From positions 13,358 through 77,357 of IMG/VR virus record IMGVR_UViG_3300021437_000010: a stretch of 64,000 bases of DNA; one strand, written 5' to 3'. Within the stretch, counting starts at the first letter, position 1, and each line of letters begins with the position of its first letter. Made by a program: the position numbers and the translations under genes. The notes under the pieces are model-generated. The model made no database searches. It was not told the DNA's origin and worked only from the letters and a program-made list of their open reading frames with translations. Of the stretch, positions 13,155 through 58,656 are shown piece by piece. The DNA is from a virus.

Positions 13155-13367
13155 CTATGCACAACGGTGTTCATTGTACCCGTAGGCACTAACCATTTCT
13201 CCACACATTGGACACTTTACAGCTACGATACTACGCCTTTCAACTTCAATAGCCTGCGCTAGACTCTCGTAGAGTCTTTTGGCTACGGGACTCACATCAT
13301 CCCACTGTTTCGCGTGGGGATGACTCGTTGCCCACTGCTCATGTACGTTCTGTCCTGTAATCATCAT
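13155..13367 (-). CDS. hypothetical protein with C-terminal Zn-ribbon
   Basis: CPMC...HRC; AGAGGA RBS. Confidence 0.5.
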   Translation of the reverse strand: MMITGQNVHEQWATSHPHAKQWDDVSPVAKRLYESLAQAIEVERRSIVAVKCPMCGEMVSAYGYNEHRCA

Positions 13368-56117: not shown

Positions 56118-56197
56118 TGTAAACTCCTTATGTTCTAATTAATTGGAATGTGTCGAGTGAAAAGCAACGTTGAAAAGGCCGTAAATAGGCGGAGATG

Positions 56198-56294
56198 TTG
56201 CTTTAGTGGCTGACTTGTGGTATACTGAAGAGGTCAAATTGACATGTGTTTGGCCCAGCGATGCTGAAACATCCTGAGCCGTGATAACAGAAAG
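56198..56294 (+). promoter_or_regulatory. conserved promoter and structured leader, copy E2
   Basis: TTGCTT-17-TATACT, GAGGTCAAATTGACATG, 29-nt bulged hairpin with compensatory changes versus E1, GTGATAACA. Confidence 0.85.
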
Positions 56295-56306
56295 TTGGTT
56301 TCTGCT

Positions 56307-57485
56307 ATGGATAGTATTGTACCTCAATCCGACCAAAAACACCAGCTCCGTAGTGACTATTATGTTTACTACCTCAATCGTCCCCCAAAACCTGATACTC
56401 CTAGCCACCTTATTAACCCTGATGGAACTGTCACGTTCTATATAGGGAAAGGCAAAGGGGCTCGTTTTCAGCAACATGAATGGTGTGCTAAGAGAGAGCA
56501 AAAGTGTAGACATCTGACATGTCGTGTTATTCGGAAGGAATGGCGCAATGGCGGACAAATCGCCAAAGAGAAAGCCTACGAAGGCCTGACTGAGTCTGAA
56601 TCTCACGAACTTGAAAAGGCACTTATCGCTTACGGGCGTTCGATCGGATTGCCATTGATCAATCTCACTGATGGGGGAGAGGGCATTTCTGGATACAAAG
56701 GTGATACTCACCCACCCTCGCAAAGAGAAAACCACCGCCAAAGCATGAAACGAAACTATTCTGACCCTGAGAAACTTGAACGCTTTCGGCAAGTTCATAT
56801 TGAGTGGTGGGAGAATAACCACCAGGCACGTGAAGCAGTCAGAAAGAGATTTGAAGATCCTGCTGTACGTGCCAAGGCTGGTGAAGCAAACATCGGTAAT
56901 GCCTACCATGCCAAGACATACGAAGGGTTTCAGAGCCCGATGGGTCAGGTCTATACAAACGTTCACCATCTCAAGAAGTTTTCTGAAGAGCACGGACTCC
57001 TTTCTGCCAAGATGTGTCAAGTAGCCAATGGAGAGAGACTCTCCCATAAAGGTTGGACTAGATATCCCCCGTTGGAGAGAGAGCAAAAACCGACCTATGC
57101 AAAAGCGGGGTTCAAAGATCCGAACGGGGTCATTTATGAAGCTGAGTCCATCCCTAGCCTTACTGATTTTTGTCGTGAGCATGATTTGGCAAGGACATGC
57201 ATGACACAACTTGGAACAGGAACGCTTCATTCGCATAAAGGATGGACACGTTACCCTGAAATCAAGGCGGAACGAGACTATCACGGAACCTATACGGGTC
57301 CGTCTCTTTTGAGCCCAGAGGGTACCGTGTACACCACTGAAGAGATCGATAATCTTACTGCTTTTTGTCATAAACATAACCTGCAAACTAGCAATATGTC
57401 CCTTGTTGCTCAGGGAAAACAACGTGCCCACAAGGGGTGGACAAGATTCCGACCTGAAGACCCTGCCCAATCCACTCTGTTCTAA
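56307..57485 (+). CDS. freestanding GIY-YIG-like endonuclease with three C-terminal repeats
   Basis: YYVYYL..FYIGKG..RF, E..LI and INLTDGGEG; three repeats ending HKGWTR(Y/F); antisense to late genes. Confidence 0.85.
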   Translation: MDSIVPQSDQKHQLRSDYYVYYLNRPPKPDTPSHLINPDGTVTFYIGKGKGARFQQHEWCAKREQKCRHLTCRVIRKEWRNGGQIAKEKAYEGLTESESHELEKALIAYGRSIGLPLINLTDGGEGISGYKGDTHPPSQRENHRQSMKRNYSDPEKLERFRQVHIEWWENNHQAREAVRKRFEDPAVRAKAGEANIGNAYHAKTYEGFQSPMGQVYTNVHHLKKFSEEHGLLSAKMCQVANGERLSHKGWTRYPPLEREQKPTYAKAGFKDPNGVIYEAESIPSLTDFCREHDLARTCMTQLGTGTLHSHKGWTRYPEIKAERDYHGTYTGPSLLSPEGTVYTTEEIDNLTAFCHKHNLQTSNMSLVAQGKQRAHKGWTRFRPEDPAQSTLF

Positions 57486-57530: not shown

Positions 57531-58656
57531 GCTTCACCTGACATGAGGCTGAAATGTTATTGCTGTTGTCACATCTCATAGGCGTATTTATAAGATGATC
57601 AACATAATTGTTAGCTGCTGCTGCTGAACTGACATTGACAAGCCAGAAAGTTGTATAGTTCAGTTTTGTTACTCATGCACTTTATGCATGGACTATCTCA
57701 TTTCTGGATAGTTCTCTGGTTTCATTCGCTATAGCCAGAGGTCGGATCGTATCTTACCTTTCGGCCCTGCGTGCGATCTCTACGGCGTCCCTTGCGGGTT
57801 CCCTCGGTATTGTCCTTGCGTTAGGAGTTCCACCGATACAGCAGGTTATCGATCAAGCAACCTTTTTGGCTACTTGAAAGCGGCAACTATTTCTTTTACC
57901 GTTTGAAGTAGATCCTCCATTCGTTGAATTCTTGAAGACGAATACAGTTGTCATACTTCTATTACCCGCACCAGTTGTAGCAGATCCAGTAAATGCTCCT
58001 GCTGACAAGTTACCACTGTACTGCTCAAGTACGCTACTTTGGTTTGCTTTCAAGTTAGCGTTTGATGGATTTTCCGCAACGTTAGGAATTGGCACAACAG
58101 CAGTTCCAATGGCATACGCTGCATTCGATGTGTAAGACACTGTTGTCAGGCTGGTAGCATTTTGAGTTGCAGCACCGTTCATTGAAACCGTTTGCGTCTG
58201 TCCAGTCCCGAAACCGACTAAAATCTGTGTTACGGTAGCATTGGCAGGAGATGGGTAGTTTAGCGGTATCGCAGCTGGTATCGCTGCAACTGCTAGGCTT
58301 GTAACGGCAGTCTGACCATTGGTGAGAGCTGTCGTCAAGGTTGTACTGCCATCGTTATTGTTGATATAGATGTTGTTGAAGACAGCAGCAGGAACAGCAT
58401 TGTTAATAGCGCACGTCAGTATATTCAGTGCGCCCTGGTCAGTAAGTGTTTTATTTGACCAAACGCGCTTTTTTGGTTTCCCTGTCTTGGCATCGGTCTG
58501 GACAATCTCCCACAGACCAGTAGGTCCGTTCTCACGAGCGCTGTACATCTTCGAAAAATCTGCGAAGTTGCGAGGCCGTACCGAACTTTTCCAGTACGGA
58601 GCATAATCTACAATCAGCTCTTCGCTGTCGTATGAACGATCTAAAATCGCTTGCAT
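57526..58656 (-). CDS. virion/tail structural protein, spliced (exon 1 58656-57898, exon 2 57660-57526; 297 aa)
   Basis: Joining GGT|AAC gives an open frame ...STSNG-NYTTFWLVNV...SCQVKL*; the track ORF ends prematurely inside the intron. Confidence 0.8.
57661..57897 (-). ncRNA. group I self-splicing intron (237 nt, ORF-less)
   Basis: P1 (exon CGGU / IGS GCCG with U-G pair), P10 (AUAGUU / exon AACUAU), P2, P3, P4, P5, P6, P7 (GAUCG/CGAUC with bulged A), P8 GAAA loop, J8/7 AAGAUA, three P9-region hairpins, terminal omega-G. Confidence 0.9.

Follow-up and report, generated by a model that had tools for sequence, protein, structure and literature searches.

A putative group I intron in a late gene of an uncultured phage and its association with a free-standing endonuclease gene

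A 64,000-nucleotide stretch of viral DNA (the window) was analysed, which forms positions 13,358 to 77,357 of the 94.5-kb IMG/VR virus record IMGVR_UViG_3300021437_000010. Sequencing runs that hold the same DNA are labelled freshwater metagenomes. On the minus strand of the window, a late gene (the host gene) is interrupted close to its 3' end by a 237-nt insert that contains no open reading frame (ORF) of its own. The best overall explanation for this insert is a group I intron that is spliced from the transcript of the host gene, a reading to which we assign a probability of about 0.9 and in which the mobility of the intron is the less certain part. The explanation is built on the comparison of the gene with uninterrupted homologues and on base-pair covariation within a family of related introns.

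Host gene and splice junction

Read without splicing, the minus-strand ORF extends from 58656 to a TGA at 57855-57853 and encodes 267 amino acids (ORF list). Beyond ...STSNG, with the GGU codon ending at 57898, this reading continues as KRNSCRFQVAKKVA and terminates. When 57898 is joined to 57660 the stop codon is lost and the 14-residue read-through tail is replaced by 44 in-frame codons, so that the predicted spliced product comprises 297 amino acids. A first-pass annotation of the same DNA had predicted both the removal of a premature stop and the gain of 44 codons, and splicing in silico reproduced them. Three equivalent cuts fit the protein junction, because the intron and exon 2 both begin with AA. 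Only the cut 57898/57660 yields a U at position -1 together with a G as the final base of the intron.

A search of 5.8 billion proteins retrieved 157 homologues of the host protein, 120 of which were listed, mostly with a length of 280-305 amino acids. Among the matches listed, a strict pattern for the canonical uninterrupted C-terminus was present in 80 of 120 homologue clusters. The C-termini inspected by eye run ...STSNG-(N/S)YT..WLVNVSS...NSNN....IK(I/L), which is exon 1 followed directly by exon 2. The first-pass annotation had expected an NYTTFW-like continuation after the NG in homologues lacking the intron; the alignment revealed NYTTFW or SYTTFW at exactly this place. At the nucleotide level, the intron-less allele of locus L281 and the window have the same sequence for 9 nt on the 5' side and 20 nt on the 3' side of the junction.

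Exon 2 differs from the L281 allele in 43 of 135 nt, which correspond to 29 synonymous and 3 non-synonymous codon differences. The comparison with five other close alleles gave 14-30 synonymous and 5-8 non-synonymous codon differences. Towards intron-less homologues the amino-acid identity of exon 2 amounts to 84-93% at a nucleotide difference of 20-43%. Judged by these substitution patterns, exon 2 is under purifying selection and still translated. As it is under selection and has no start codon of its own, it must therefore be joined to exon 1. The alignments establish the insertion, its exact boundaries and the selection on exon 2. In the record, the host gene is annotated 30 residues short and with a false 14-residue tail, and at least ten further database clusters among the homologues listed bear the same kind of misannotation.

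A strain-variant contig (run X2) carries the intron as well. In its P2 helix the pair A24-U42 is replaced by G-C, three pairs are changed compatibly on one side and one pair is broken. A second copy of the intron was present neither in the window nor in the whole 94.5-kb record. The phage records of GenBank contained no match to the gene region or to the host protein, and the intron alone yielded core-level matches of 30-60 nt with E ≥ 0.02.

Secondary structure and covariation of the intron

The first-pass annotation had read the pairings of a complete group I core on the minus strand, and all of them were located in the sequence at the positions it had named (Table 1). P2-P6, P8 and the P9 hairpins all appear in the minimum-free-energy fold (z = -3.99), and none of 200 shuffled sequences folded equally well. 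The architecture is compact, with 4 bp in P5, 3 bp in P8 and three hairpins 3' of P7'. No helices lie between P3' and P8, hence the intron is devoid of P7.1/P7.2, and it also has no P5abc.

Table 1 Features of the intron, its host gene and the neighbouring genes in the window, with the insertion sites and allele states in related loci
Feature	Position	Strand	Description
Host gene exon 1	58656-57898	minus	253 codons, ends ...STSNG, last base U; homologues align over residues 1-253
Group I intron (putative), ORF-less	57897-57661	minus	237 nt; absent at precisely this point from >80 homologues; 264 bits with family model R1
Host gene exon 2	57660-57526	minus	44 codons and stop; translation NYTTFWLVNV...QVKL
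P1	57881-57901	minus	CGGU/AA (57901-57896) with UUGCCG (57886-57881); U57898-G57884 wobble at 5' splice site
P10	57890-57885 with 57660-57655	minus	guide AUAGUU with exon 2 AACUAU; from sequence
P2	57853-57877	minus	10-bp hairpin; contains the in-frame stop TGA 57855-57853
P3	57845-57838 with 57772-57766	minus	CCUGC(U)GU with ACGCAGG; encloses P4, P5, P6/P6a and the 5' strand of P7
P4	57836-57831 with 57809-57804	minus	UCGGUG with UACCGA
P5	57826-57823 with 57816-57813	minus	UCCU with AGGA
P6/P6a	57803-57784	minus	GCAA loop
P7 (guanosine-binding helix)	57780-57774 with 57749-57744	minus	GAUCG/CGAUC and G118-C154 across bulged A119
P8	57765-57756	minus	GCC-GAAA-GGU
J8/7	57755-57750	minus	AAGAUA
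P9	57740-57735 with 57719-57714	minus	first of three 3' hairpins
P9.1	57712-57692	minus	second 3' hairpin
P9.2	57690-57674	minus	third 3' hairpin, followed by tail and terminal G 57661
Homing-endonuclease-type gene	56295-57485, likely ATG 56307	plus	antisense to the late operon; GIY-YIG-like N-terminus
Conserved downstream neighbour, 72 amino acids	55899-56117	minus	marks the endonuclease gene as an intergenic insertion
Insertion site 1	after NG		R1 family; window, L002, L293, L299, L297
Insertion site 2	after RCD		unrelated intron; recognised by RF00028 (78-79 bits) in L003 and L005, through sequence similarity alone in L298
Insertion site 3	after NNV		distant R1 relative, 57.9 bits; L288/L289
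Insertion site 4	in NNVTV, after GU		R1 family; L003, L297
Site 2 intron copies	L003:4742-4997; L005:3430-3686; also L298		unrelated to the R1 intron
Intron-bearing, downstream readable, endonuclease gene present			window, L293, L003, L005, L297, L298
Intron-bearing, endonuclease remnant			L288/L289; one repeat kept
Intron-bearing, downstream readable, endonuclease gene absent			none
Intron-less lineages, endonuclease gene present			L282, L287/L291
Intron-less lineages, endonuclease gene absent			L281, L283, L284, L285, L290, L292, L294, L295

Relatives of the intron were located by patterns of the conserved core, the closest ones in L003, L006 and L007. A covariance model, R1, was built from four sequences (the window intron and three relatives), and a search with this model returned 70 matches in 41 loci. 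In the resulting alignment 96.5% of the pairs were standard and 39 of 45 pairs changed on both sides. Not one of 500 shuffles reached any of five measures, and slid controls were paired to 31-46%. Across the family, standard pairs made up 97% in P3, 100% in P4, 91% in P5 and 98-100% in P6, and 7/8, 5/6 and 4/4 pairs within the P3-P6 region changed on both sides. The 3' domain behaved similarly, with 99%, 100% and 85% standard pairs in P9, P9.1 and P9.2 and many compensatory changes. P2 aligned poorly across the wider R1 family.

The R1 model does not contain P7, since RNAalifold could not predict the pseudoknot, and this helix was therefore counted separately on the same alignment. All 305 cells of the P7 pairing were standard, compared to 3-40% in slid controls. 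Covariation was observed at three of five positions (CG/AU/UA/GC, UA/CG and AU/GC), or at four of six if G118-C154 is included (GC 54, AU 5, UA 1, CG 1). The window sequence GAUCG/CGAUC is a rare, fully compensated variant common only to L007, the usual form in the family being GACUA/UAGUC. The pair G120-C153 was invariant and the bulged position 119 was an A in 55 of 61 members. Conservation across the family extended to AAGAUA in J8/7, GUA in J6/7 and the adenines of J4/5 and J5/4. A bulged A, the G-C pair of P7 and conserved junctions are signatures of the guanosine-binding site and of the triple-helical scaffold of group I introns.

At the intron ends, U occupied position -1 in 47 of 61 aligned members; the terminal G was aligned in only 31 of 62 members, the 3'-end alignment of the family being loose. 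P10 covaries with the first codon of exon 2 among introns at the same site: the guide ..GUU faces AAC (Asn) in the window and in L297, and ..GCU faces AGC (Ser) in L293 and L299. The assignment of the insert to the group I introns, made in the first-pass annotation, is supported by this family-wide covariation, which includes the P3/P7 pseudoknot, and by family members and sharers of the core motif that pass the threshold of the Rfam group I model RF00028 (Intron_gpI). The segment L142:770-1042 matches both R1 (95.7 bits) and, above threshold, RF00028 (56.7 bits). A P4-P6 motif, UAUCGGUG...UACCGAGGGAACCC, lies inside RF00028 matches in L161 (87 bits), L168 and L230. The double match in L142 and the shared P4-P6 motif therefore tie the window intron to recognised group I introns.

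From the sequence we infer catalysis and self-sufficient splicing of the window intron. The transcript would fold into the P1 and P10 substrate helices, a P4-P6 domain and a P3-P7-P8-P9 domain, which includes the P3/P7 pseudoknot. The pair G120-C153 of P7 would bind an exogenous guanosine, and this would attack 3' of U57898, the base held by the U-G wobble in P1; the terminal G57661 would next replace the guanosine in the binding site. P10 would position exon 2, and ligation of the exons would give rise to the 297-residue protein. The in-frame stop located 14 codons into the intron would halt ribosomes short of the catalytic core.

Insertion sites and the neighbouring endonuclease gene

In relatives, the last ~45 codons of the host gene are interrupted at four sites, and every 5' exon ends in U. 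Two loci, L003 and L297, contain two introns each in the host gene. Site 1 is occupied in L293, L299, L297 and L002, with host-protein identities down to ~50%, and site 2 lies 31 codons downstream of it. Read-through tails diagnostic of introns were detected in 11 of the 120 homologue clusters listed; they indicate site 1 in six clusters, site 2 in three and site 3 in two. The sites are located among invariant residues of the protein (G255, G260, Y262, W266). On this evidence the gene appears to have an intron hot spot at its 3' end. The gene orf142 of Staphylococcus phage Twort, reportedly described by Landthaler and Shub in 1999, is said to be a single gene with three group I introns and in this resembles the host genes of L003 and L297. 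In contrast to Twort, the multiplicity observed here is mostly spread over relatives, at four sites, and is tied to a neighbouring free-standing endonuclease gene.

This endonuclease gene ends 40 nt from the stop codon of the host gene. Its N-terminal motifs YxY...FYIGKG...R...H...E...N are invariant in six homologues, and five of the six family members match the Pfam family LEM-3_GIY-YIG (best E 1.7e-6). A profile of the six homologues matched the PDB entry 9u75, a 'GIY-YIG domain-containing protein', with E 5.8e-4; the PDB search with the single endonuclease sequence yielded nothing useful. The C-terminus of the window copy consists of three HKGWTRYP/NUMOD-like DNA-binding repeats. One to four HKGWTRYP-type repeats are present in each homologue, matching NUMOD-like and PHROG 2081 profiles, the latter with E 1e-26 for the endonuclease. 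Homologues occupy the same position in L293, L003, L005, L297, L298, L282 and L287. In loci without the endonuclease, the homologue of the 72-amino-acid gene begins 9-36 nt past the host gene stop; in loci with it, the endonuclease gene sits between these two genes. Because the 72-amino-acid gene directly follows the host gene wherever the endonuclease is absent, the endonuclease gene is regarded as an intergenic insertion. The region is open on both strands (56139-57470, minus, 443 amino acids; 56295-57485, plus, 396 amino acids), and of the two opposed ORFs only that on the plus strand yields a product with family matches. For L005, gene calling had favoured the strand opposite to the endonuclease homologue.

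The endonuclease gene or its remnant accompanies all seven intron-bearing loci with a readable downstream region and two of ten intron-less loci (one-sided Fisher p = 0.0019, uncorrected for shared ancestry). The co-occurrence is directly observed; the target of the endonuclease we infer. Collaborative homing appears to be the likeliest mechanism of mobility: the antisense GIY-YIG-type endonuclease would cut the gene's conserved 3' end in intron-less alleles, the break would be repaired from an intron-bearing genome with co-conversion of the intron and the endonuclease gene, and the intron, which splits the endonuclease target, would shield its own genome. The gene arrangement matches that of published collaborative homing, which is established for two phage systems, the psbA intron of cyanophage S-PM2 with the free-standing F-CphI and the DNA polymerase intron of a T7-like phage with a neighbouring endonuclease (PMC3984707; PMC6083498). 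In those systems the intron resides in psbA or a polymerase gene and occupies one site, whereas the window intron resides in a late, plausibly tail-module gene and its relatives occupy four sites. The window endonuclease differs from both by its putative GIY-YIG type with NUMOD-like repeats, its antisense orientation and a target that is predicted. The four-site hot spot and the graded series of intron and endonuclease states are new. The series comprises intron-less alleles without and with the endonuclease gene, one-intron and two-intron alleles that have it and an allele with an endonuclease remnant. It could serve to test a protective role of ORF-less introns, namely whether they spread and persist because they guard against an adjoining free-standing endonuclease.

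Several observations weigh against a spliced and mobile group I intron. RF00028 did not match the window intron at the gathering score, and the intron remained unmatched at E ≤ 10 on a 701-nt slice and in the whole record, so that the Infernal check suggested in the first-pass annotation failed for this copy. DNA contigs from four runs contained no intron-less joint at the locus. The window endonuclease scored 23.5 bits against LEM-3_GIY-YIG, under the cut-off of 27 bits. The p value of the association is not adjusted for ancestry, and such an association would likewise arise from simple linkage to a mobile endonuclease gene. Moreover, the endonuclease gene is present in two lineages devoid of introns (L282 and L287/L291), so coexistence with it does not require an intron. 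A match to RF00028 is a criterion of detection and not a defining property of a group I intron. The window intron shares with RF00028 introns, including the one at site 2, the core topology, the AAGAUA-P7' segment and the bulged A in P7; it differs in lying below detection at E = 10, in the rare P7 variant and in its very short P5 and P8. The silence of RF00028 on the window copy would suit a dead intron remnant, or another insertion that does not splice, in a phage that makes the truncated 267-residue protein. This is very improbable, given that exon 2 lacks its own start codon yet is under strong purifying selection, that all core pairings and conserved junction bases are intact, and that the site is occupied in hosts diverged to ~50% protein identity with exon 2 intact in all of them. 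A different intervening element, namely a group II intron, an intein or a translational bypass, was considered only since Rfam is silent on the window copy; nothing specific points to it, and its probability is close to nil. A group II intron would have to be longer than 237 nt, and the searches gave no match to any group II family. An intein is excluded by the in-frame stop 14 codons into the insert. The hallmarks of group I, by contrast, are present in the U at -1, the terminal G and the covariation of the P3/P7 pseudoknot.

The mobility might have another basis, in which the intron splices, but the endonuclease targets a different sequence in the vicinity, for instance in the intergenic region or in the 72-amino-acid gene. 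Introns would then be carried along within the co-conversion tract, and new sites would be reached by reverse splicing. The two intron-less lineages with an endonuclease gene would be in line with this, as would the 5' exon end ...CGGU and the guide GCCG shared by R1 introns across sites and genes, which a short guide-directed preference in reverse splicing would produce. We nevertheless judge this hitch-hiking unlikely, because four sites and at least two intron lineages are crowded into the ~45 codons adjoining the endonuclease gene, because every assessable intron-bearing locus has the endonuclease gene or a remnant, and because the insertions fall where the protein is most conserved, as is usual for homing targets. 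Collaborative homing is thus preferred here. It can be extended, tentatively and with rather more doubt than confidence, to a joint interpretation that regards the ~45 codons at the gene's 3' end as an arena of endonuclease-intron conflict. The putative GIY-YIG endonuclease would target the gene end, and at least two unrelated lineages of ORF-less introns would act as immunity inserts at four sites. R1 introns might in addition spread to further sites and into other structural genes, for example that of an HK97-type capsid protein, by reverse splicing into ...CGGU sequences that match the fixed GCCG guide.

Host protein and the wider intron family

The host protein had no match in Pfam, NCBIfam or cultured phages. 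Among the late-module genes that surround the host gene in the window, one encodes a protein of more than 1267 amino acids with a lectin-like 3-keto-disaccharide-hydrolase domain and another an amidase endolysin; further genes there encode other large repetitive proteins. In relatives, the gene context includes a nearby SU10-type capsid gene (L003), a pectate-lyase-type protein (L282) and a protein with an ice-binding fold (L298). The AlphaFold model of an intron-less homologue had a predicted local distance difference test score (pLDDT) of 73.7, and a Foldseek search with the host-protein model against the PDB gave nothing at E ≤ 0.001. Comparison with BFVD gave query TM-scores of ≤0.38 to uncharacterised and 'tail fiber' proteins. 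VIA-align (Z ≤ 7.2) pointed to a central beta-barrel common to tail-tube proteins, baseplate proteins, capsid insertion domains and domain 2 of EF-Tu. A virion or tail-module protein is plausible in view of the neighbourhood and the weak fold matches. The first-pass annotation had called the gene virion structural; these two lines of evidence favour that designation and carry it as far as plausibility.

The first-pass annotation had also considered a compact intron in a tail-region gene noteworthy, as described phage introns lie mostly in other kinds of genes. This argument was overstated, since introns in capsid and minor tail genes have already been published (PMC3706429). Cluster J mycobacteriophages contain spliced group I introns in the capsid gene of LittleE and in the minor tail gene of BAKA and Optimus, with splicing demonstrated by reverse transcription polymerase chain reaction and N-terminal protein sequencing, and a capsid-gene intron of lactococcal phage Tuc2009 is cited in the same study (PMC3706429). 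Cluster J and window introns have in common the location in virion structural genes (plausible in the present case), a U at -1 and a G as the last base. Like the window intron, that of BAKA is small (265 bp) and ORF-less. Cluster J genomes are rich in free-standing endonucleases, and their introns were recognised against intron-less relatives, as here. The hosts of Cluster J phages, by contrast, are high-GC actinobacteria, and splicing was seen there, whereas it is predicted for the window intron.

In the wider data, the P4-P6 motif was present in 35 viral contigs and, beyond these, in more than 119 contigs from metagenomes and more than 120 from genomes. The genomes belong mostly to Patescibacteria (candidate phyla radiation) and in some cases to Streptomyces (loci L160-L239), and only some of the motif sites in these genome contigs reach the RF00028 threshold. 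Introns in Patescibacteria and Streptomyces genomes share the P4-P6 core of the window intron. Many relatives of this intron, like the window copy itself, are missed by the standard group I model, and the family is widespread in structural genes of uncultured phages. An intron family that is largely invisible to RF00028 and that also splits HK97-type capsid genes is new.

The capsid case is found in L038:6362-7786, where an R1-family intron (191.7 bits) divides the gene of an HK97-type major capsid protein. Positions 1-98 of the Pfam family Phage_capsid are matched in the upstream exon and positions 107-217 in the downstream exon. The intron of L007 is situated in a long unidentified ORF. In most of the 70 aligned introns the 5' exon ends in ...CGGU and the guide is GCCG, regardless of the host gene or site. 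This constancy fits a possible spread to new sites through guide-directed reverse splicing.

Dense tandem arrays of R1-family introns also occur elsewhere, in contigs of uncultured phages and of actinobacteria, L154, L148, L136 and L144 among them. Three successive R1 introns are separated by micro-exons of ~35 and ~52 nt in L192:1753-2546, and five R1 and two RF00028 matches are packed into ~2.2 kb in L146:5656-7853. Two R1-family introns abut in L067:223-731. In the same contig (L067:723-1637), an ORF for an HNH endonuclease with several helix-turn-helix domains lies beside or between R1 introns and represents a second kind of endonuclease found with the family.
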